In this document: positions 13,770 through 59,255 of the stretch, one piece after another
Position numbering within the stretch: the first letter of the stretch is position 1
Layout of the letters: the number at the start of each line of letters is the position of its first letter
Source: an uncultured Alphaproteobacteria bacterium
GTDB lineage: Bacteria > Pseudomonadota > Alphaproteobacteria > RF32 > CAG-239
NCBI GenBank assembly: GCA_934254585.1
Contig: CAKQLF010000001.1
Coordinates: 28,093 to 92,092, forward strand
Length of the DNA stretch: 64,000 bases
Reading direction: 5' to 3'
Translations under genes and position numbers: made by a program
The notes under the pieces: model-generated
The model's database searches: none
Told to the model about the DNA's origin: nothing
What the model saw: only the letters and a program-made list of their open reading frames with translations

Positions 13770-15620
13770 TTATTCCATAGCTTCCGGTTTAGCTCGCTTA
13801 CGGGCAATAGGATCCAAAATTCGTTTTCTTAAACGCAATGATTTCGGAGTAACCTCCAAAAGCTCGTCAGCCTGAATATAAGCCAAAGCCTGTTCCAAAC
13901 TCAATTTACGAGGCGGAATCAAATCTATGGCTTCATCTTTGCCGGCGGCGCGGATATTGGTCAATTGCTTAGATTTTGTCGGGTTAACTTCAATATCGTT
14001 ATATTTTGTATGTTCACCGATAATCATACCAACATACACCGGACTATTGTGCTCAACAAACATCGGGCCGCGGTCTTGCAGTTTCCACAAAGAATAAGCA
14101 ATTGCCTGACCGTTTTCGCTGGAAATCATCACCCCGTTGCGACGATCTTCAATTTCACCCTTATACGGCTCAAAAGCATAGAAAATACGGTTCATAACAC
14201 CGGTTCCGCGTGTATCTGTCAAAAATTCCGAATGATAACCAATCAAACCGCGGGAAGGAGCGTGGAAAATCAAACGCACTTTATTACCGACTTGAGACGG
14301 AATCATTTCTACCAATTCCGCACGGCGTTTGCTTAATTTTTCTACCACCGCGCCAGAAAATTCTTCATCTACGTCAACCACAACTTCTTCAACCGGCTCT
14401 AAAAGCTGACCATTTTCATCGCGTTTCATAATAACGCGCGGACGGGAAATTGAAAGTTCAAAGCCTTCGCGACGCATAGTTTCAATCAAAACACCAAGCT
14501 GCAACTCACCGCGACCGGCCACTTCAAAAGTGTCTGAATTATCGGTGCGAGAAATTTTAAGCGCGATATTACCTTCGGCTTCTTTTTCCAAACGTGCCCA
14601 AATCACACGGGATGTAACTTTATCACCTTCCTTGCCGGCCAAAGGCGAATCATTCACAGAAAAAGTCATTGCCAATGTCGGCGGGTCAATCGGCTGAGCT
14701 TTGATAAAATCTTTAACATCAACGTCTAAAGCGCAAATAGTGTCGGCAACCGTGCCTTTAACAATTCCGGCAACAGCAACAATATCTCCGGCGTGAGCCG
14801 AATCCAAAGCCACTCTTTCCAATCCTTTATAGGCCATAATTTTAGTAATTTTAGCCCGCTCTACTTCGCCACGCTCGTTAATAACTTTTACCGCATCGTT
14901 AACCTTAACGCTGCCGCTCTGAATCTTACCGGTCAAAATACGACCGACAAACTTATCAGATTCCAAAGTTGTCGCCAACATTCTAAATGGTTTATCAGGC
15001 TCGCAAACCGGCTCGCTGACATAAGACACAATGGTTTCAAACAGCGGCGTTAAATCTTTATGTTCATCACTAAGCTCGCGAACAGCCCAACCATTGCGGC
15101 CTGAAGCGTATAAAATAGGAAAATCCAATTGTTCATCACTTGCATTCAAGCTGACAAACAAGTCAAAGATTTCATTCAAAACTTCATCAGGGCGAGCGTC
15201 CGGCTTATCGGCTTTATTAATAACAACTATCGGTTTTAAGCCGATTTTTAAAGCTTTTCCCAACACAAATTTCGTTTGCGGCATCGGACCTTCAGAGGAG
15301 TCAACCAACAAAACAACGCCATCAACCATTGACAAAATACGTTCAACTTCACCACCGAAGTCAGCGTGTCCCGGAGTATCTACAATGTTTATATGAGTAC
15401 CGTGCCAGTCAACCGAGGTGCATTTTGAAAGAATTGTAATACCTCTCTCTCTTTCCAATGCGTTGCTATCCATAACACAATCAGCCACTTTTTGATTATC
15501 ACGGAATGTACCGCTTTGCCGCAACAAACCATCAACCAAAGTTGTTTTACCGTGGTCAACGTGGGCAATTATGGCAATATTTCTCATACTCATAAATTTA
15601 TCCTTTTTTAAAATCTCCAC
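13770..15620 (-). CDS. typA: translational GTPase TypA/BipA
   Basis: AHVDHGKTTL, DTPGHADF and NKADK G-motifs, with an EF-G-like C-terminal domain. About 600 aa. Confidence 0.9.
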   Translation of the reverse strand: MEILKKDKFMSMRNIAIIAHVDHGKTTLVDGLLRQSGTFRDNQKVADCVMDSNALERERGITILSKCTSVDWHGTHINIVDTPGHADFGGEVERILSMVDGVVLLVDSSEGPMPQTKFVLGKALKIGLKPIVVINKADKPDARPDEVLNEIFDLFVSLNASDEQLDFPILYASGRNGWAVRELSDEHKDLTPLFETIVSYVSEPVCEPDKPFRMLATTLESDKFVGRILTGKIQSGSVKVNDAVKVINERGEVERAKITKIMAYKGLERVALDSAHAGDIVAVAGIVKGTVADTICALDVDVKDFIKAQPIDPPTLAMTFSVNDSPLAGKEGDKVTSRVIWARLEKEAEGNIALKISRTDNSDTFEVAGRGELQLGVLIETMRREGFELSISRPRVIMKRDENGQLLEPVEEVVVDVDEEFSGAVVEKLSKRRAELVEMIPSQVGNKVRLIFHAPSRGLIGYHSEFLTDTRGTGVMNRIFYAFEPYKGEIEDRRNGVMISSENGQAIAYSLWKLQDRGPMFVEHNSPVYVGMIIGEHTKYNDIEVNPTKSKQLTNIRAAGKDEAIDLIPPRKLSLEQALAYIQADELLEVTPKSLRLRKRILDPIARKRAKPEAME

Positions 15621-29045: not shown

Positions 29046-32000
29046 ATGTACAAAAACGAGGGTAAAATGTTTAAAAATAAAGTTTTAACAGAAACAACAG
29101 GTTTTGTAACGTTGATTTGTGTGGGGACATTAGCTTTGCCTACCAACTTAAAAGCCTATTATTTGCCGCCTGTTTCTTTTTCGGAAATGTATCGTTTAGC
29201 GCAAAGCGGTGATGTTGAAGCTTTAAGAGCCTCCGTCAGACGAGGATTAAATATTGATACAATTAACCAAAACGGTGATACCGGACTTTGTATAGCCGCA
29301 CGACGCCGTGATACCTATACTTACAATGCCTTTCGCGCTGCGGGTGCAAACCCTCACCACCCTTGTGTGCAGCGTATTGATTATTATAACAATTTTTTAA
29401 TTTCATCAAAGGCCGTACCTATTACCGCCACACCAAGAGAAGCTTACGGAGCTATTGGAAAAGAAACTTATAAAATTTCTTCAACAACGTGGTGGATTTT
29501 GGGAGGTCTGGCCGTTGGCGGTGGAATTGCCGCTTTAGCTATGGGCGGAGGAGGAGGCGGCGGTTCGTCTTCGGAAAAATCCAGTGAAAGCGGTATTGGC
29601 AACGTTATCGGTTCATCAGGTTCAACCCTAAAAACAACCTCTGGTTTGGCCACAAACAGTTCAGAGCTTAGTGTTGGCAATTCAAACTTATCTGAAGTCG
29701 CCGGAATAAATTTTAATAAAGATGTTATTTCCGCTGCAAAATCTCTAAATATTGCATTAAAAGCTGAAAACGGAGGTCAATATATAAACACTGCTGACAC
29801 AACCATAAATATAGGAGCCGGAGGAGCCGGTTTGGTTGCAGTTAATAACAGTAAGGTTATAAACAACGGTTATTTAAAATCAACTGAAACAGATTTTAAT
29901 GCGTCGGCAGGTATGATGGCCAGTAATAACTCCGAAGCCATAAACAATGGCAAGGGAATTATTGACAGAACAGGCGCAAACGGAATTGATTTAAAATTTT
30001 CCGGTTATAATGAAAACAACCTGATTATAGGTATGTACGCCGACACAAGTTCAAAAATAACCAACAACGGAGATATAAAAGGTTCGGCCACTCAAGCTAT
30101 TTCGGACCCGACAGCCGAAAACAAAAACAATTCTGAAAATTCTTCATCTTCCGGTTCGACAACGGCCGGCACTACTTCCGGCAACGGCACAATTGTCGGT
30201 ATGGAAACAATGATTATTAATGCCAACAAAGATTCAAGCGGAAATACTATCTATGCCATCAACGGCGAAAATGGCAATATTTCGCTGAGTGCCGGTGAGG
30301 GTATATCTTCCGGTACAGATGTAAAGCTAAACATTATTGGTATGAGTAGTTTTTTAGATAACTCTTTTCTTAATGGCAGTAAAAATATCCAACGTGCGGA
30401 AAAATCTTTTCTGGAAAATAATGGAAATATAACTCTGAGCTATACCGGTTCTTATTCCGCCGCGGCAGAAAACACTTTACGCAAAGGTCTGGGCGGAATT
30501 GTCGGTATAAGAGCTGATGCCAACACTACCGGCGTCAATAACGGCAATATAAACATAAAATTGACCGACACCACATCGTCAGCTGCAAACTCGGTTGATG
30601 TGGCGGCAGCTATGCAATCTGTTCACAGCGGTAACATAACCAATAAAAATAACATTAAAATTTCAACTTCTTCCACCAATGCCCGTATAACTTATGGTAT
30701 GATGGCCGTAGAAGGTGATGGTTCTGTTTCCGGATTATATACGGAAAATAAGCAAACTTTAGATAATATCGGCACAATAATAATGAATGCCAGTAATTCT
30801 TATGCTATGGCCTCATTCAACGGCGGAACGGTCGTCAACAATGGAACAATTACTATCGGCAACCAAGATGACAGTAATTTTGGTAAAAACACGGCAATGT
30901 ACGGTTCCGGCGACAGCTTTTTAACAACATTGAAAAATAATGGAACTATAAACGTTTACTCACAAAATTCTTACGCTATGCGCAACGACTTTAGCGGCGG
31001 AAACGTTATTTCTAATGATGGAACAATTTTTATTTCAAATTCAGCCAAAGGTTCAAATGTTTTCGGCGGAAATTACAGTAAAATTATTAATAACGGAACA
31101 ATTCAATATAAACCTGCAGCCTCAAATACTTCTGGTTCCGGCGGTTCTTCAGGTTCATCAACAACCGGCGGAACAGTTGGTGACAATTTGAATTTAACCC
31201 TTAATCAACACGTTATGGACACTAAATCTCCAACCGTTTCTTCCGTCACTTCAAGCGGTAACGAACAAGCTCTTAACAACGGAACTATTATTACAGAAAC
31301 TTCAAACACCTCGGCCATGAGTGTAGAAACTTCACAAGGTTCCGCTATTAACAACAATATTATTACAGTTGCGGCAAATAAATTAAAAGATAATGGAGTT
31401 AATGCCGGAATGTATCTTTCTGCAGATACTGAAAAATCCGCGAAAATTGTCAATAACGGACAAATAAACATTAATACTTCTTATTCCGTGGGAATGGGTA
31501 GCGCGTCTTCATATAATTCAAGAATCGAAAACGCCGAAAACGGAGTTATCAACCTTAATGCCGATAAAACCATCGGTCTTTATGCTTCGGGAAACAGCAA
31601 CTTGTTTAATAATGGCACTATAAATGTAAATAGTGATGACAGTATTGCTATTTTTTCGGCCGGAACAGGAACAGGGCAAAACAGCGCGCTTATATCCAAC
31701 AGTATTATCAATGTCAAAGGGAAAAATGCCATTATCTATCAAATTAACGGCTCTGCGGAAATAAATCAAAACGGGCGCATTAATATTGACGATTCCGTAA
31801 AATCAACTGCCACTTATTACTATGTAAACGGTTCTTTAAACTTAAAGAATATTGATTTAGGTATTGATTCCGGAAATTTTGTAAAAATCGGCTCTAACGG
31901 CAACGGAACTTTATCTATAGATGAAACAACTTCACTTTCAATCAGCAAGCAAGGAACAATTATAAACGCTGAAAACGGAGCAACATCTATCATTAATAAA

Positions 32001-33959
32001 GGAACATTAAGCTTACCAAGCGGTTCGGGAAGTTATGTTATGCTTTTAGATAAAAGTGCTAAAGCCGAAAATTATGGCACCATAAATGTTAATGGTGAAA
32101 ACAACTATGGTGTTTATATTAAGTCAGGTGAATTCAGCAATAAGAGTATAAGCACCGGCCCAGAACAACCAACTATAAATGTAAAAGGAAATAACAATTA
32201 CGGTATTTTTGCCATAAATGACGCCAAAATTACCAATGAAGGAAATATTAATGTTTCCGGAAACGATAATTACGGTTTATATTCTCAAAGCAGTGAAGAT
32301 ATAACCAATTCGGGAACAATTACCTTAACAGGTTCAAATAACTATGGTATTTATTCTGTTGCTGAAGGAAAAATAATCAACAGCGGCCGCATAAATGTTC
32401 AAGGTTCGGGAAATATTGGAATATACACCTCGCAAGCTAATGTTGAAAATAACGGAACAATTAATGTTTCCAGCGGGTCGACGGGAATAAAAGCGGAAAA
32501 AGCCGGATTAGTTAAAAATAACGGTGTTATCAACGGCAGCGGAACAGATATTGACCAACCAAGCGATGAAACTTCGCAAGCCTCTTTAGCCGCTAAAAAC
32601 TTTTTACAGGTTAAAACTAAAGGTATTATAAAAAACAATGGCCTTATTACCGCCAAAAATTTTAATTTTGACGAATCTAACGATGGAAGCGGACAAATTG
32701 TTGTTGGTAAAAACGGAACATACAAAGCACAATCACTAAGCGGAACTGTTGTTGCTGATGCCGACATTTCTCAAAACGGATTTAACACAGTCTATAGAAA
32801 TGATAATTCCTTTATCGGAAAAGACAATGGTTTAAATATCGTTTCCGGCTCTTATTTGTTTAATGCGCAAAAAGCTCTAAACAGTAATGGTAACACCGAT
32901 GTTGTTATGACAATGAAATCATTTAACGATGTAATAGATAATCAAGAATTTGCTGATTATTTAACTGAAAACTACCAAGCGCGTAAAGGTGAAGAAACAT
33001 TTAATTTGCTAAAAGGAGCAACTACCGCCCAAAGTTTTACAACTATAAAGAATAGAGAATTCGGGTTTAGTATGCTGCCAAACTTAGCAAAGCAGGATTT
33101 AGACATTTTAAACAATGTCAACCGCGCTATAAATGATGATGTTTTGGTTTCAACAACAGAAAACAGCCGCGCTAAAGTTAATGTTCTTACCTATCAGCAA
33201 AAAATAGGCAACAAGCAAGAAGTTTCCGGTTATAAAGATATGGTTAAAGCTGTTTACGGATTTAACGATTATCAAACAGCTGACAAATGGCGAGTTGGAT
33301 TTGGTGCCGCGGCGGCGCGTTCTGACACCAAATTTAACGATAATTCAAAACGTTATAACAATATATTGGAAATATTTACACCCTTAACTTATGTAAATGA
33401 CAATTTCCGCGCTATGACAAAACCTTTAATCGGTTTTGGAAAAGGTCATTATCGTCGCTTTGGCGGTAGCAATATTTATAAGGCCGACTTAACCAACTAT
33501 TATTACGGTATAAACACAGAAGCTCGTAAAACTTATGATTTAGATGCCGCACAGCTTGAACCGACTATCGGGTTTAATGTTACAAATATGCGAATTGACG
33601 GCATAAAGGAAAGCAATAACGGCTTAAAAACTGATGATGACAACGTATTGTCGGCGCAATCGGTTATAGGATTAGATATTAAAAAGGATTTTGAATTAAC
33701 TGAAAATCAAACAATTTATTTAACAGCCGGTGGAAAATATTTCTATGAATTTGGAAATAAATATTCTACACAAGCAACTTTGGGAGATTTAATAAATTCT
33801 TATAAAATAGAAAGTAATCGTTTACAGCGAAACAGCGGTTTATTAACCGTAAAAGCACAATATGAAAATAAAAATTTAGCAATAAGTGCTTCGCTTAATA
33901 AGCCTTTGGAACAAAAGAATAATACTTATTATTTGTTTAACTTAGGATATAAATTTTAA
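29046..33959 (+). CDS. autotransporter-like adhesin (type Va) with beta-helical passenger
   Basis: 1637 aa. Signal peptide (probable start at ATG 29067 after SD gaggg). One ankyrin-like repeat (NGDTGLCIAARRRD...AGANPHH), a hydrophobic Gly-rich segment and a Ser/Gly linker. About 1000 aa of N-N-G-(T/V)-I-N repeats are typical of parallel beta-helix passengers. The C-terminal roughly 300 aa beta-barrel-like region ends ...NLGYKF. Confidence 0.75.
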   Translation: MYKNEGKMFKNKVLTETTGFVTLICVGTLALPTNLKAYYLPPVSFSEMYRLAQSGDVEALRASVRRGLNIDTINQNGDTGLCIAARRRDTYTYNAFRAAGANPHHPCVQRIDYYNNFLISSKAVPITATPREAYGAIGKETYKISSTTWWILGGLAVGGGIAALAMGGGGGGGSSSEKSSESGIGNVIGSSGSTLKTTSGLATNSSELSVGNSNLSEVAGINFNKDVISAAKSLNIALKAENGGQYINTADTTINIGAGGAGLVAVNNSKVINNGYLKSTETDFNASAGMMASNNSEAINNGKGIIDRTGANGIDLKFSGYNENNLIIGMYADTSSKITNNGDIKGSATQAISDPTAENKNNSENSSSSGSTTAGTTSGNGTIVGMETMIINANKDSSGNTIYAINGENGNISLSAGEGISSGTDVKLNIIGMSSFLDNSFLNGSKNIQRAEKSFLENNGNITLSYTGSYSAAAENTLRKGLGGIVGIRADANTTGVNNGNINIKLTDTTSSAANSVDVAAAMQSVHSGNITNKNNIKISTSSTNARITYGMMAVEGDGSVSGLYTENKQTLDNIGTIIMNASNSYAMASFNGGTVVNNGTITIGNQDDSNFGKNTAMYGSGDSFLTTLKNNGTINVYSQNSYAMRNDFSGGNVISNDGTIFISNSAKGSNVFGGNYSKIINNGTIQYKPAASNTSGSGGSSGSSTTGGTVGDNLNLTLNQHVMDTKSPTVSSVTSSGNEQALNNGTIITETSNTSAMSVETSQGSAINNNIITVAANKLKDNGVNAGMYLSADTEKSAKIVNNGQININTSYSVGMGSASSYNSRIENAENGVINLNADKTIGLYASGNSNLFNNGTINVNSDDSIAIFSAGTGTGQNSALISNSIINVKGKNAIIYQINGSAEINQNGRINIDDSVKSTATYYYVNGSLNLKNIDLGIDSGNFVKIGSNGNGTLSIDETTSLSISKQGTIINAENGATSIINKGTLSLPSGSGSYVMLLDKSAKAENYGTINVNGENNYGVYIKSGEFSNKSISTGPEQPTINVKGNNNYGIFAINDAKITNEGNINVSGNDNYGLYSQSSEDITNSGTITLTGSNNYGIYSVAEGKIINSGRINVQGSGNIGIYTSQANVENNGTINVSSGSTGIKAEKAGLVKNNGVINGSGTDIDQPSDETSQASLAAKNFLQVKTKGIIKNNGLITAKNFNFDESNDGSGQIVVGKNGTYKAQSLSGTVVADADISQNGFNTVYRNDNSFIGKDNGLNIVSGSYLFNAQKALNSNGNTDVVMTMKSFNDVIDNQEFADYLTENYQARKGEETFNLLKGATTAQSFTTIKNREFGFSMLPNLAKQDLDILNNVNRAINDDVLVSTTENSRAKVNVLTYQQKIGNKQEVSGYKDMVKAVYGFNDYQTADKWRVGFGAAAARSDTKFNDNSKRYNNILEIFTPLTYVNDNFRAMTKPLIGFGKGHYRRFGGSNIYKADLTNYYYGINTEARKTYDLDAAQLEPTIGFNVTNMRIDGIKESNNGLKTDDDNVLSAQSVIGLDIKKDFELTENQTIYLTAGGKYFYEFGNKYSTQATLGDLINSYKIESNRLQRNSGLLTVKAQYENKNLAISASLNKPLEQKNNTYYLFNLGYKF

Positions 33960-34036
33960 CGATTATATATTTGTTAAGAAGTGTTTGTTATAATCAAGGT
34001 GTTTAATGATTCACCTAATTTTATGAGGAAAGAAAG

Positions 34037-34087
34037 ATGAAAAATAAGCTTAGCAAAGGTCTCTCTCTCTCTCTCTGCAAATCCTAA
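34037..34087 (+). CDS. 16-codon upstream ORF containing a (CT)8 tract
   Basis: SD gagga 7 nt upstream. Encodes MKNKLSKGLSLSLCKS. Speculative as a translated uORF. Confidence 0.2.
   Translation: MKNKLSKGLSLSLCKS
34060..34076. repeat. (TC)8 dinucleotide microsatellite
   Basis: tctctctctctctctct read directly. Only such tract in the window. Confidence 0.9.
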
Positions 34088-34475
34088 ATGTCTGATTAAA
34101 GGCATATTTTCTGCCGCTACAGACGTTTTTGCAAGTTTTTTCAGAAAAAATGACATATTAAAAAATAACAAGCACAGCACGAAACTGGCAGGCGGCACAA
34201 AGCAAGCAATTCTAGCACCAGTCATTATAGGCCCTGTGCCTAGAATCTTGTTGCAACAAGGTACTAACCTAGTCAATAAATTTGCCTTATTATTACATAA
34301 GTGTCGGTTCGCACAAGATTCTCGGGACAAGCCCGAGAATGACGGTAGCTGGAGGTGTTGGCTTAGTATTTGTTACAAGTTATTTAATTACCCCTCACCA
34401 GCAGACAAGTCTGCGACCGATAAGCCATCAAAGGGTTTGGATGTCGTGCGGCAATACGCCGTGCTTTTTGAACGA

Positions 34476-34495
34476 CGTGTACAGAGTAGTACACG
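34476..34495. repeat. palindromic element cgtgtac-N6-gtacacg (copy A)
   Basis: Perfect 7-bp arms. Lies within the conserved direct repeat cgacgtgtaca...agtacacgag. Confidence 0.8.
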
Positions 34496-34588
34496 AGTGA
34501 GAAAAGCGCAAGCAGTGAACGGACAGACAAAACATATTAGAAATCTTCTTCCGCAATGTGCGTCAGATGCGACGGGATTTTTAAGCGA

Positions 34589-34609
34589 CGTGTACAAAAA
34601 AAGTACACG
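34589..34609. repeat. palindromic element cgtgtac-N7-gtacacg (copy B)
   Basis: Same arms as copy A, about 113 bp downstream and 26 nt before the pilin-like GTG. Confidence 0.8.
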
Positions 34610-34634
34610 AGCGCGAAAATTCCTAGCAGATGGC

Positions 34635-35282
34635 GTGCAGTACGGTAGAAGTATGATTGAGATGTTGGGCGTTTTGGCCATCATCGCTGTTTTGAGCGTT
34701 GGCGGTATTGCCGGATATTCTAAGGCAATGGAAAAATTCAAACTTAATAAGGCTATGGATGAATACAGCTATCTTATTTATGGGTTGCTGGAACACTTAG
34801 ATGAAATTAAATATTCCACTAAATCCAGAGACGGAAATGATACTCCTGTTGTGGAATTAGCTAATAATTTGAATTTGGTTCCTCCGACATGGACAATGAT
34901 AGCAAACAATCTTAATGTTAGTCATAAAAATTTATTTGAAGACCCATATAACAATCTTTTATCTATTTACTCAAAAAACGGAAATTTGCGTTTTGATTTT
35001 ATTTTAGGCGGTTCGCAATTTAAGGACGAAGGTTCTTGGATAACTGAAAATTTTTCAACCAAATTCTGTATGGAATTGGTAAACAATGTTGTCAAACCAT
35101 TGCATTCTTCTTTGGAATTTTTATTTTTTTACAGGTCAAAAGGAAACTCATCCACTTTTTATGGTGATAAGAATTGTTCTTCCGGACGCAAATGTTTGAG
35201 TGATATCAGTATAAAAGAAGTGTATGATAATTGTAAACGTTGCTCAAAAAAAGAAGTTTGTTCAGTAACTATAGACTTTTAA
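34635..35282 (+). CDS. type IV pilin-like protein, paralog 1 (class-III-signal-like N-terminus)
   Basis: Track ORF 34236..35282. The start is reassigned to in-frame GTG 34635 because DNA conservation with paralog 2 begins exactly there (gtgcagtNcggNagaagtatgat). N-terminus ..G-RSMIEMLGVLAIIAVLSVGGIAGYSKAMEK has Glu at +5 of the hydrophobic segment. The C-terminal Cys motif CSSGRKCL...CKRC...EVCSV is shared with paralog 3. Confidence 0.55.
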   Translation: MQYGRSMIEMLGVLAIIAVLSVGGIAGYSKAMEKFKLNKAMDEYSYLIYGLLEHLDEIKYSTKSRDGNDTPVVELANNLNLVPPTWTMIANNLNVSHKNLFEDPYNNLLSIYSKNGNLRFDFILGGSQFKDEGSWITENFSTKFCMELVNNVVKPLHSSLEFLFFYRSKGNSSTFYGDKNCSSGRKCLSDISIKEVYDNCKRCSKKEVCSVTIDF

Positions 35283-35394
35283 ATTGTATATAATAGATAT
35301 CCACCAGTAATGATGAACTTCTTCCTTAAAGGTGGGTTTCCACTTTCTGGGGTACAGTTCAAAATCGGGTGATTTCTGTAACGAATGTATTAAA

Positions 35395-35424
35395 AGCTCG
35401 TGTAACACTGAATTTACACGAGCT
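35395..35424. terminator. bidirectional hairpin terminator; also third copy of cgtgta...tacacgag palindrome family
   Basis: agctcgtgtaa-cactgaat-ttacacgagct, then ttcattttt on plus and T-rich on minus. Between convergent pilin-like gene and rho. Confidence 0.6.
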
Positions 35425-35445
35425 TTCATTTTTATCATTCAAACT

Positions 35446-36699: not shown

Positions 36700-36872
36700 T
36701 TTTACCTTAAATTTTGTATGATTGTTAAAAATAGAATGTGAAACATTGAAATGTTTGTTGGTTTGCTTATATAAAAGATGAAGTTAAAAGTCAAATGTTT
36801 TTTATGCACATTTCTTTTCCCTTATTAATATTTTAAATTTAAATAGTTATTGTTATATATGCTTGCGAAATA

Positions 36873-36894
36873 TGTGGATAAATTTATATCCACA
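36873..36894. promoter_or_regulatory. inverted pair of DnaA boxes (tgtggataa / atatccaca)
   Basis: The 9-mer TTATCCACA is perfect on the minus strand at 36873-81. It matches 8 of 9 on the plus strand at 36886-94. Confidence 0.6.
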
Positions 36895-36927
36895 GAGTTA
36901 ATAACATTAATAAATTGTTTAACAAAG

Positions 36928-36969
36928 TTAATAAATAGTTAATTATTCAATAAGTTAAAAAATAGTTAA
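36928..36969. promoter_or_regulatory. two CtrA-box-like sites TTAA-N7-TTAA within an 18-bp direct repeat AGTTAAnAAATAGTTAAT
   Basis: ttaataaatagttaa (36928-42) and ttaaaaaatagttaa (36955-69). The region is about 80% A+T with several gttaataa repeats. Confidence 0.35.
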
Positions 36970-37097
36970 TATTTTTTTCAACATATCTTAATAAAATTTA
37001 TCTGATGTTAATAAGTTTGTATAATATTTTTACAAAAAGTTGATACTTTGTTAAAAACTAAAGTTGTAATAAAGTTATGCACATTTTGGGGTGTGTT

Positions 37098-37724: not shown

Positions 37725-38436
37725 AATATGTTTTGATACGGAAACAACAGGTTTAGACCCTGATACCGGTGATAGATTGGTGGAAATAGGCGCGGTCGAG
37801 CTTATTAATCATTTGCCAACAGGAAAGATTTATCACGAATATATAAATCCGGAAAGAGATGTTCCCGAAGAAGTTGTAAAAGTGCACGGTTTGGACAATG
37901 AATTTTTAAAAGATAAACCGGTTTTCAGAGATGTGGCACAATCTTGGGTTGATTTTATAGGCGATGACGGAATTTTGGTGGCTCATAATGCCTCATTCGA
38001 CTTGAAATTTATTAATTTTGAACTGAAAAAATGCGGTTTTAAAACTTATGATTGGGACAGAGTTGTTGATACGTTGGCAATTGCCAGAAATGAATTTCCG
38101 GGGGCTCGTAATAATTTGGACGCCTTGTGCCGTCGTTTTAATGTAGATAATTCAGCGCGTACATATCACGGAGCTTTGTTAGATGCGCAATTGCTTGCCG
38201 AAGTATATTTGCAGTTATTGGGAGGCGATGAGCCAAGTATAAATTTTGTTAAATCATCGGCAGAAAATTCTCAAAAACACGGCGAAAATATCAGTTTTAC
38301 GGCGCAAAACGTGCAAAAAAGAGTGTTTGCTTTATCAGAAGAAGAACAGCAGGCTCACTTAGATTTTCTTGAAAAAAAAATTAAGAACGCTTTATGGTTA
38401 AAAAATACTGAAAGTGATATAAATAATGATGCTTAA
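37717..38436 (+). CDS. dnaQ: DNA polymerase III epsilon subunit (3'-5' exonuclease)
   Basis: Exo I motif FDTETTGLD, Exo II HNASFD and Exo III YHGALLDAQLLAEVY. Confidence 0.85.
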   Translation: MREICFDTETTGLDPDTGDRLVEIGAVELINHLPTGKIYHEYINPERDVPEEVVKVHGLDNEFLKDKPVFRDVAQSWVDFIGDDGILVAHNASFDLKFINFELKKCGFKTYDWDRVVDTLAIARNEFPGARNNLDALCRRFNVDNSARTYHGALLDAQLLAEVYLQLLGGDEPSINFVKSSAENSQKHGENISFTAQNVQKRVFALSEEEQQAHLDFLEKKIKNALWLKNTESDINNDA

Positions 38437-48316: not shown

Positions 48317-48403
48317 GCGCTTGTGGCGGAATCGGTAGACGCTGCAGACTTAAAATCTGTTGGGATTTATCCCGTGCCAGTTCAAGTCTGGCCTAGCGCA
48401 CCA
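48317..48403 (+). tRNA. tRNA-Leu (anticodon UAA)
   Basis: Hand-folded. Anticodon stem GCAGA/TCTGT with loop CTTAAAA. Long variable arm. T-arm GCCAG-TTCAAGT-CTGGC. CCA encoded. One acceptor-stem mismatch. Confidence 0.85.
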
Positions 48404-48766: not shown

Positions 48767-48997
48767 AAGAAAAAATAAAGGAGAATCAAAGTGTTAGAAA
48801 ATGGCAAAATGGGGCTTTTAAGACGGGTTTTTGAGGTGATTTTTGGGCACAATGTCATTAATCGGCATTTTTTCAAGGTTATTAGTGAGATTTTGGGTAC
48901 CATTCGCGGGCTCCGACCTGCGAATCTGGATTGCCGGATTACGTCTGGCAATGACAGTAAGGTGGAGTGCGTCACGTTCGGCAATGACTATAGAGTT

Positions 48998-49636
48998 GTG
49001 CAGTCCGGAAGAAGTATGATAGAAATGCTCGGCGTTTTGGCTATAATTGCGGTTCTTTCCGTTGGCGGAATTGCCGGATATTCCAAGGCCTTAATGAAAT
49101 GGAAATCAAATGTTCAAAAAAATATGTTGGCAGAATTGTTAACTAATATGATAAAAATTAGACCTAATCTCGATAAAAAATCTACATCATTTGATAACAT
49201 AACCTATGTTTTTGAGGCTATGGGAGCATTACCGGAAGGAATAACTTATAAAAATAATTATATGTATGATAAAGAAGATAATTTGATTTGGATTGATTAT
49301 GGTTTATCGTCGTGGACTAATGAAGATGGTTCCATTGGCACGATGTTTGCTTATGTTTTACGTTTTAATTATAAAATAGGTACTGGTAATCTAACGGTTC
49401 CGGCTAAGGATTTTTGCTTGAATTTGCTTGAGGCTGCTAAAACTATTGCGGAAGAGGTTGTTTGTGTAAAAACAAATTATAGTGATTCTTCCAGTTGGAA
49501 TGGTTCAGGTCAAAATGTAATGTATACAAAAAGGTCTTTAGAAACGGCAACAATGGCAGATATGCAACAGAAATGCAATATGGTAATTAAAGAAGAGGGC
49601 GGAGTTCGTTTTTCATTAATGCTAAATCCTTATTAA
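48998..49636 (+). CDS. type IV pilin-like protein, paralog 2
   Basis: Track ORF 48791..49636. Start reassigned to in-frame GTG 48998 (MQSG-RSMIEMLGVLAIIAVLSVGGIAGYSKALMK). The C-terminal domain is diverged (3 Cys) and not alignable by eye with paralogs 1 and 3. Confidence 0.5.
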   Translation: MQSGRSMIEMLGVLAIIAVLSVGGIAGYSKALMKWKSNVQKNMLAELLTNMIKIRPNLDKKSTSFDNITYVFEAMGALPEGITYKNNYMYDKEDNLIWIDYGLSSWTNEDGSIGTMFAYVLRFNYKIGTGNLTVPAKDFCLNLLEAAKTIAEEVVCVKTNYSDSSSWNGSGQNVMYTKRSLETATMADMQQKCNMVIKEEGGVRFSLMLNPY

Positions 49637-58490: not shown

Positions 58491-59111
58491 ATGGGATATT
58501 TTTACAATCAAACAGGTCGTTCAATGATAGAAATGTTAGGCGTTTTGGCTATTATCGCCGTTTTATCCGTGGGAGGTATTGCCGGATATTCTAAGGCAAT
58601 GGAAATGTATAAAGAAGATAAAGTTATTGAAGAATATAGCTATATGCTGACAGGTTTTATTGAACATTTGGATAATTTAAAGCGAAATAAATATGAAAGA
58701 CAAACAGGTATGGTTGATTTTGCTCTATCTGCCAATATTGTACCATCTGTATGGACCAGACTAAGCAGTGATTATATAAATGATAGCTTTGGAAATAAAT
58801 TAAGAATATATATGGGAACAAGTGGTATTTTGGTTATTGATTTTTGGATGGGTGGAAAAACTAAAAAATTTGATACAAAATTTTGCCGTAAATTTTTAAA
58901 TAAAGTTGCTTTTCCCTTACATCAGACATTAAAGCAAATTGATGTGCATCGTAATGAAAATGGAAACTTAAATGGTCTAATATGGAAAGGAGATAATTTT
59001 TGCAGTGCGGGGCAAAAATGTCTTAGAGATATTACGTTGACGGAAATAGATGCGGCTTGCAAAACTTGTGTGGAAGATAGAGAAGTTTGTGCAGTTATTT
59101 TCTGGTTATAG
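58491..59111 (+). CDS. type IV pilin-like protein, paralog 3
   Basis: Sequence MGYFYNQTG-RSMIEMLGVLAIIAVLSVGGIAGYSKAMEMYK has a 9-aa leader ending in Gly, then the conserved block. The C-terminal CSAGQKCL...CKTC...EVCAV is homologous to paralog 1. Confidence 0.6.
   Translation: MGYFYNQTGRSMIEMLGVLAIIAVLSVGGIAGYSKAMEMYKEDKVIEEYSYMLTGFIEHLDNLKRNKYERQTGMVDFALSANIVPSVWTRLSSDYINDSFGNKLRIYMGTSGILVIDFWMGGKTKKFDTKFCRKFLNKVAFPLHQTLKQIDVHRNENGNLNGLIWKGDNFCSAGQKCLRDITLTEIDAACKTCVEDREVCAVIFWL

Positions 59112-59179: not shown

Positions 59180-59255
<76 letters not shown>

Follow-up and report, generated by a model that had tools for sequence, protein, structure and literature searches.

A CT-repeat tract at the 5' end of a type IVb-pilin-like gene in an uncultured gut alphaproteobacterium as a probable slipped-strand contingency switch

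The CT tract and its surroundings

The window analyzed here is a 64-kb stretch of DNA from an uncultured alphaproteobacterium. In it, the gene for a 1637-aa BigA-like, autotransporter-like surface protein (29046–33959) is followed by a pilin-like gene that ends at position 35282, a hairpin, and the convergent rho gene. In other strains, the autotransporter-like protein has 1638 aa and its synteny with the pilin gene is conserved. The hairpin is a terminator-like stem-loop with a T-run (35393–35426, forward strand; 13-bp stem with five GC pairs) that lies between the pilin gene and rho and is kept in six of six aligned strains. The spacer between rho and coaE (36700–37000) has a GC content of 17 to 22% and carries imperfect 11-nt and 21-nt tandem repeats at 36896–36971 (AGTTAATAAAT).

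The longest simple-sequence tract of the window is a perfect 17-nt TC/CT run, TCTCTCTCTCTCTCTCT, at positions 34060–34076 (TRF: period 2, 8.5 copies, 100% matches). In 100 dinucleotide-preserving shuffles of the window, the expectation for a TC run of at least 12 nt was 0.00. The original prediction called this the only simple-sequence tract in the 64 kb, which is essentially right, the next best being a (CT)5 run (15443–15452) and A9/T9 runs at 38372 and 47388. It also described a (CT)8 tract inside a short ORF with the Shine–Dalgarno (SD) sequence gagga 7 nt before its ATG, and these features are present: the ATG (34037–34039) precedes the tract by 23 nt, GAGGA (34025–34029, forward strand) stands 5' of this ATG with a 7-nt spacer, and in the 17-nt allele of the window, reading from ATG 34037 gives a 16-codon ORF, MKNKLSKGLSLSLCKS, with the stop codon TAA at 34085–34087. 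The pilin-like start had been placed about 550 bp downstream, in good agreement with the G(–1) codon of the GRSMIE motif (34644–34646), which lies about 555 nt 3' of the short ORF.

A candidate extended –10 element, TGTTATAAT, was read from the sequence at 33986–33994 on the forward strand, about 45 nt 5' of the ATG; it is the sole –10-like element, and the CT tract lies about 65 nt 3' of it. A two-hexamer promoter scan 5' of ATG 34037 called no promoter on the forward strand, having skipped this element because a good –35 hexamer is absent. In 157 family copies among the matches listed, the equivalent position is 50 to 80% conserved (tgtt.taaAat, TGnTATAAT-like), and the context of the SD sequence, AGAGGAAAGAAAGATG, is more than 80% conserved.

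The pilin frame is free of stops from 34041 to 35282, meaning that it is open right behind the ATG, with which a TGA (34038–34040) overlaps. In silico, adding one CT unit joins ATG 34037 to the pilin frame and yields a protein of 415 aa, and removing two units yields 413 aa. Hence, what looks like a small ORF is the beginning of the main gene, read out of frame. Codon 34037–34039 is the true start, opening the family head MKNKLSKG; in-frame homologs begin here, and the DNA of two natural alleles described later (L179 and L180) agrees. Counted from this start, the tract spans codons 8 to 14 and is out of frame in the window, lengths of 13 or 19 nt being in frame. It is followed, always on the forward strand, by a conserved pre-sequence head of about 45 codons, ANPKCLIKGIFSAATDVFASFF... 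(34077–34211), in which the pilin frame is open, by a mosaic, GC-rich (42–49%), and hairpin-rich part of the extension with no stop in the pilin frame (34212–34643), and by the prepilin-type cleavage motif G↓RSMIE (34644–34661; Gly–1, Arg+1, Glu+5). The mature type IVb-pilin-like domain of 211 aa, with its stop codon, occupies 34647–35282. Judged from its reading frame, the long "leader" of the pilin-like gene is coding.

The pilin-like domain and its N-terminal extension

The segment G↓RSMIEMLGVLAIIAVLSVGG is nearly invariant in the 53 homologs, the residues G, S, E, M, L, and G being fully invariant. Profile scores lie below the cut-offs: Pfam N_methyl gave 13.6 to 15.5 bits (13.6 for the tract-linked gene) versus a cut-off of 21.2, and TIGR02532 gave 15.3 for paralog 2 and 14.6 for paralog 3 versus a cut-off of 16.3. 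A structure predicted from the 53-sequence alignment (pLDDT 85.7, pTM 0.78) has a 46-residue N-terminal helix packed on a β-sheet, and the modeled fold, a helix on an antiparallel β-sheet, is closest to that of type IVb pilins. Type IVb pilins are characterized by a long leader, a mature length of about 200 aa, variation at residue 1, and the absence of Pro22 (PMC10710030). The mature part of the pilin-like protein (211 aa; Arg1, Glu5, Gly19, Ala22) fits this description in its length, its residue 1, and its lack of Pro22, and the leader is long as well, by far exceeding any known example. No prepilin peptidase or pilus machinery was found within the 64-kb window, and a crude motif test across 1.35 Mb of related loci was negative for Walker A motifs of the PilB/GspE type. 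The absence of a nearby peptidase and of T4b machinery from the window and these loci lowers the likelihood that the protein belongs to the IVb pilins.

Two further pilin-like genes lie on the forward strand of the window. Paralog 2 (48791–49636) starts with GTG behind a strong SD sequence (AAGGAG), and its 72-codon extension is uninterrupted and free of a CT tract, which argues that extensions are translated in this family. Its extension shares the module RPANLDCRITSGNDSKVEC with an insert found in paralog 1, the tract-linked gene, on contig L002, and its MLENGKM head recurs in the homologs P0022, P0023, P0031, P0035, and P0039. Alternative N-terminal heads of at least two types, M[LF]KS[MI][NE]FF.GKSRG... 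and MLENGKM..., occur in the family (among P0003–P0005, P0036, P0037, P0041, and P0042). The leader of paralog 3 (58491–59111), MGYFYNQTG↓RSMIEML, is short and ordinary. The gene for tRNA-Leu(taa) (48317–48403) lies about 390 nt 5' of paralog 2, and about 70 nt separate the end of paralog 3 from tRNA-Thr(cgt), which is on the opposite strand (59180–59255); tRNA genes are common landmarks of integration and recombination.

The GC content of the "leader" is 42 to 49%, compared with 17 to 27% in neighboring spacers, and its fold has a z-score of –6.2. It contains direct repeats (34454–34515 and 34567–34629) and a 55-nt inverted repeat (34197–34251 and 34313–34367). Perfect hairpins are eightfold enriched in the modules of the extension. 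Strains differ in which modules they carry, and these differences are always in frame; modules were seen in more than one of the reading frames, and none interrupts the pilin frame. In the examples GATTCTCGGGACAAGCCCGAGAATGAC and GATTGCCGGATCACGTCCGGCAATGAC (window 34197–34643, L002, and L006–L178), modules have common flanks and different self-complementary stems. A search for the leader repeats elsewhere in the window found only the helix-coding segment that the paralogs share, so the modules are no general genomic repeat in the window, and a wider test indicated that they are specific to this pilin-like gene family. The high GC content and the z-score had raised the idea of a structured RNA in the leader, which was dropped because the frame is open and the stability was traced to the palindromic modules. 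Rfam models, applied to the whole window at the gathering threshold, identified three tRNAs only and nothing in the leader.

Rickettsia palindromic elements are palindromic elements inserted in frame in protein-coding genes of Rickettsia. The modules described here resemble them in being short, GC-rich, palindromic, in frame within alphaproteobacterial ORFs, and present or absent between strains. The Rickettsia elements are, however, scattered over unrelated genes, whereas the present modules are restricted to the 5' extensions of one family. We know of no precedent for a pre-sequence of 50 to 300 aa in front of a prepilin cleavage site.

Tract length at the orthologous locus and across the family

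Relatives of the locus were collected by an exact-match look-up of the adjacent Rho protein, which led to human-gut metagenome contigs with the same gene order. The tract measures 17 nt in L002 and 15 nt in L001, and both alleles are out of frame, in two different frames. Compared with the window, the extensions of L002 and L001 differ by a 55-codon insertion and a 70-codon deletion, respectively, and the pilin frame is fully open in both. In the window, L001, and L002, this frame has no stops from the tract to the end of the gene, compared with about 20 in each of the other two frames, and the 567 nt from tract to pilin motif are stop-free in the pilin frame in every strain compared. Changing the tract in silico by +1 or –2 units (window and L002) or by –1 or +2 units (L001) gave ORFs of 347 to 470 aa from the same ATG.

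A search with the engineered in-frame protein retrieved a natural homolog, P0001, which aligns over 100% of the query at 82% identity and begins with MKNKLSKGLSLSANPK. P0001 is encoded on contig L179, where the gene order (autotransporter, gene, rho, coaE) is unchanged and the flanks of the tract are nearly identical; the tract of L179, with 13 nt, is in frame, and the gene was called as one 388-aa ORF from the same ATG. A natural in-frame allele with a 19-nt tract is found in L180 (protein P0060). From the L179, L001, and L002/window alleles it follows that the orthologous locus occurs with 13 nt (in frame) and with 15 and 17 nt (out of frame). The comparison across strains that the original prediction proposed thus revealed variation at the orthologous locus and, as described later, whole-unit differences between near-identical alleles.

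In one relative, L004 (7417–8433, reverse strand; orthologous to window positions around 34400–35282), the switch head and most of the extension have been replaced by a transposase gene. The transposase is IS110-family-like, lies in divergent orientation, has the N-terminus MTETKNKFFIGIDVAKAKLDIF..., and is inserted beside the palindromic modules. L004 keeps a 209-aa pilin ORF starting VECG↓RSMIEM, and the contig ends inside the insertion sequence. The helix-coding segment at window positions 34641–34740 has 12 to 19 mismatches per 100 nt with L004, L005, and L179, and there are two to three in the next 542 nt (<0.6%). By its mismatch pattern, this segment marks an apparent gene-conversion or recombination breakpoint at which 5' regions are exchanged between paralogs.

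Repeat length was also compared between near-identical alleles, orthologs being defined as near-identical C-terminal domains in different assemblies. A stricter definition by the tract-proximal flank yielded four pairs only, because the mosaic extension breaks alignments. The tract differs in length in six of eight pairs whose C-terminal domains are at least 99.5% identical, and in 15 of 28 pairs at 98% or more; the extension differs in length in 18 of the 28. In the pair L119/L146 (15 versus 17 nt), the flanks have 0 mismatches in 120 nt upstream and 4 in 987 nt downstream, and in L063/L139 (17 versus 15 nt), 0 in 62 and 13 in 1089. Three genes that are out of frame in bin CAKQDU01 are in frame, with 13 nt, in sample ERZ1034949. 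Some of the allelic tract differences could stem from 5' recombination instead of slippage, although the pairs with identical flanks argue otherwise. The locus thus has three of the features by which simple-sequence contingency loci are defined, namely a repeat between start codon and domain, natural in-frame alleles, and polymorphism with conserved flanks.

When public genomes and metagenomes were scanned with the tract and its flanks as query, the head proved to be multicopy in genome bins of related uncultured gut Alphaproteobacteria, with at least 58 copies in CAKQRZ01, at least 25 in CAKQDU01, and at least 20 in CAVKTH01. Among the matches listed, 181 distinct copies have tracts of 11, 13, 15, 17, and 19 nt in 1, 7, 118, 54, and 1 cases, respectively; over this range, the ATG shares the pilin frame at 13 and 19 nt only, and each of the two common out-of-frame lengths is one unit away from an in-frame length. 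Out-of-frame alleles make up 163 of about 171 scorable copies among the matches listed (about 96% of consensus alleles), a deficit of in-frame alleles relative to the expected one-third with p = 1.4e-21, to be read with the caveat that copies are not independent. Bin CAKQRZ has at least 57 pilin-linked copies, all of them out of frame.

In 123 of 132 complete copies among the matches listed, the extension is open over 52 to 303 codons (median 116) as far as G[RK]SM[IVL]EM and the end of the pilin-like domain, whereas over these extensions (14,852 codons) the two alternative frames contain 792 and 1253 stops. The words ANP[KE]HLIKG and FAGFGRKN recur in the conserved head of about 45 aa across 125 copies among the matches listed. 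At the protein level, seven of the best 120 clusters (P0001, P0012, P0044, P0057, P0060, P0103, and P0113) are in-frame homologs that start at MKNK, with MKNK..KGLSLS(LS)[AV]NP fused to the extension and the pilin domain.

Proposed mechanism, alternatives, and related systems

Considering these observations together, the CT tract is quite likely a slipped-strand contingency switch within the coding sequence, near the 5' end, of a type IVb-pilin-like gene. Transcription would probably start from the extended –10 element near 33990, and ribosomes would initiate at ATG 34037, read MKNKLSKG, and then read the tract as (Leu-Ser)n. A tract of 13 or 19 nt would let them translate about 190 codons of basic pre-sequence before reaching G↓RSMIEML and the pilin domain, for a precursor of 413 or 415 aa; with 15 or 17 nt, they would stop after 16 to 18 codons, and no pilin would be made. 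Replication slippage would alter the number of units, and the 17-nt allele of the window would be in the off state, one CT unit from on. Such switching may be frequent and reversible within a clone. In the off state, pilin expression would be lost, and Rho-dependent polarity on the structured RNA, left untranslated, might add to this loss; in the on state, a prepilin peptidase would presumably remove the long pre-sequence. As to the excess of out-of-frame alleles, each locus may be on in a small minority of cells, such that consensus assemblies read off, and if bulk selection disfavors the on state, lengths could become confined to 15 and 17 nt, the pair flanked by an in-frame length on either side. 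The excess fits sparse stochastic expression, and it also fits a mostly silent family or unconventional decoding.

Where the original prediction foresaw a phase-variation switch for the downstream surface protein, the comparative alleles uphold the slipped-strand part, and the two routes suggested for it, a uORF and altered promoter spacing, both fall away. On those routes, a regulatory uORF in a non-coding leader, or a repeat that sets promoter spacing, would tune a pilin gene that starts independently near 34640. The present allele does contain a short ORF with a good SD sequence, and GTG 34635 (V-Q-Y-G↓RSM) could in principle start a four-residue leader, but this internal GTG has no SD sequence, the residues before G(–1) vary, and neither a start codon nor an SD sequence near G(–1) is conserved in the window and the family homologs. 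The short peptide reads MKNKLSKGLSLSLCKS and ends at TAA in the 17-nt class, reads ...LSLQILNI and ends at TGA after 18 codons in the 15-nt class, and is absent from in-frame alleles; with a different stop codon in the 15-nt class, it is not conserved, and the locus thus lacks what defines a uORF-controlled leader, a conserved small ORF ahead of an independently initiated main ORF. Moreover, 123 of 132 copies among the matches listed have no pilin-frame stop in the "leader", whose indels are strain-specific and in frame, and in-frame alleles are single ORFs from the same ATG. A role in promoter spacing is excluded because the tract lies 23 nt 3' of the ATG, and hence also 3' of the SD sequence, rather than between or upstream of –35 and –10 elements. 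Taken together, these data make a uORF or promoter-spacing repeat highly improbable. It is next to negligible that the length differences are assembly or sequencing errors at a low-complexity site: many metagenome contigs do end at or near the repeated head, where assemblers struggle, but the differences are whole 2-nt units only, the distribution is sharp and reproducible over 27 independent assemblies from different pipelines among the matches listed, and the flanks are clean. A 17-nt dinucleotide run is also short for Illumina error.

The predominance of out-of-frame alleles (163 of about 171 scorable copies among the matches listed) could also be explained by a decaying or silent gene, the frameshift being a pseudogene mutation or the family a silent archive of recombination donors, with no switching role for the tract. 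The exchange of 5' segments between paralogs (12 to 19 mismatches in the first 100 nt versus two to three in the next 542 nt) and the differing extension lengths in 18 of 28 ortholog pairs are in line with such an archive. Pseudogenes gain stops, yet 93% of the complete copies among the matches listed keep 250 to 420 codons open past the tract. SD sequence, ATG, and head are conserved in every copy among the matches listed, unlike in promoterless silent cassettes; tract lengths are almost exclusively 15 and 17 nt, each one unit from an in-frame length, without drift, and intact in-frame alleles exist at orthologous loci; a silent family is therefore unlikely. Alternatively, the 15-nt and 17-nt alleles might be functional and be decoded inefficiently, by +2/–2 ribosomal re-pairing or RNA polymerase slippage, resulting in constitutive low expression of all copies. 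The extreme excess of exactly two out-of-frame lengths speaks for recoding, and a dinucleotide repeat would permit perfect tRNA re-pairing after a +2 or –2 shift, 15 and 17 nt needing opposite, equal shifts. The need for two opposite shifts is at the same time a difficulty, and in-frame DNA alleles exist that are called as normal ORFs. Programmed frameshifting is further disfavored because no conserved RNA structure was found 3' of the tract, the RNAalifold consensus of 127 distinct copies among the matches listed being empty. The transcriptional slippage known to us occurs on homopolymer runs rather than on dinucleotide repeats. Recoding is thus very unlikely.

Within the contingency-switch interpretation, a broader model may be put forward tentatively. 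The head (promoter, SD sequence, ATG, MKNK..KG, (CT)n, ANPK...) and the hairpin-module extension would form a dedicated 5' cassette of at least 50 type IVb-pilin paralogs, giving sparse, stochastic expression of a few of many genes, with nearly all copies one slip from on. The pre-sequence of 50 to 300 residues would be a translated, disposable leader, colonized by family-specific in-frame palindromic modules that would in addition promote the exchange of 5' segments among paralogs by recombination.

Mechanisms of this kind are already known; the unusual part is the long modular leader on IVb-like pilins combined with a scale of dozens of copies. In Helicobacter pylori, CT dinucleotide repeats are present at the 5' ends of sabA, sabB, hopZ, and babB. 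In the H. pylori gene oipA (hopH), slipped-strand mispairing changes the number of 5' CT units and thereby places the reading frame on or off (PMC10564699). The present locus shares with oipA the CT unit, its position just past the start codon in pre-sequence coding DNA, the frame logic, and the setting of a host-facing surface protein in a gut-associated bacterium. The oipA product is a β-barrel outer-membrane protein, whereas the present one is type IVb-pilin-like. Further differences from H. pylori are that a mosaic pre-sequence of 52 to 303 codons separates the repeat from the functional domain and that the head is common to dozens of paralogs per genome, compared with a handful of genes.

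The opa genes of Neisseria carry (CTCTT)n in the leader-peptide coding region, and the resemblance extends to a multigene family of surface proteins, a separate promoter and start per copy, a pyrimidine repeat in leader-coding DNA, copies that switch independently and are mostly off at any time, and recombination between paralogs. The repeat is a pentamer in opa and a dimer here, and opa leaders are ordinary Sec signal peptides, in contrast to the long pre-sequence in the present family. Neisseria gonorrhoeae has 11 phase-variable opa genes (PMC11868660), compared with at least 58 copies in one bin here.

Known leaders of type IVb pilins such as TcpA, CofA, and the PilS proteins of S. typhi and R64 have about 13 to 30 residues. 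The present leaders differ from these in their length (52–303 residues), modularity, and hypervariability; in addition, HMM scores are below threshold, and no cognate peptidase or assembly genes were seen in the window and related loci. Known variation in IVb systems concerns the PilV shufflon of R64 and S. typhi, where C-terminal segments undergo site-specific inversion, whereas here variation resides in a 5' repeat. The (TA)n repeat of H. influenzae hif represents the promoter-spacer type of simple-sequence switch. A limited literature search retrieved nothing specific on this gene family or on pilin phase variation in gut Alphaproteobacteria.

If the cassette model is correct, this would be a new kind of pilin precursor, and we know of no larger single-family repertoire under repeat control. 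An uncultured, widespread human-gut alphaproteobacterial lineage would then diversify its surface as Helicobacter and Neisseria do, but on type IVb pilins, which would bear on colonization, immune and phage evasion, and strain persistence in the gut. A mosaic, hairpin-rich pre-sequence of 50 to 300 residues challenges the current view of class III signal peptides.

There are also consequences for annotation. ORF finders mis-annotate these genes as truncated proteins from an internal GTG (MPRILLQQ...) plus a stray upstream mini-ORF. Many other clusters among the best 120 start at such an internal GTG, as naive ORF calling does in the window, and these MPRILLQQ... starts would seem to be the annotation footprint of out-of-frame alleles. 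Many metagenome contigs (L114, L116, L120, L127, L142, L147, L152, L155, L157, L168, and L174) start or end within a few bases of the head; the shared head fragments assemblies, and the copy numbers per bin are therefore likely underestimates. Two bins with head copies, CAVKTH01 (at least 20 copies) and CAVIDY01 (one copy), carry the label "Bacteroidaceae bacterium" (L008, L022, L033, L038, L062, L080, and others) and are probably mislabelled or contaminated.
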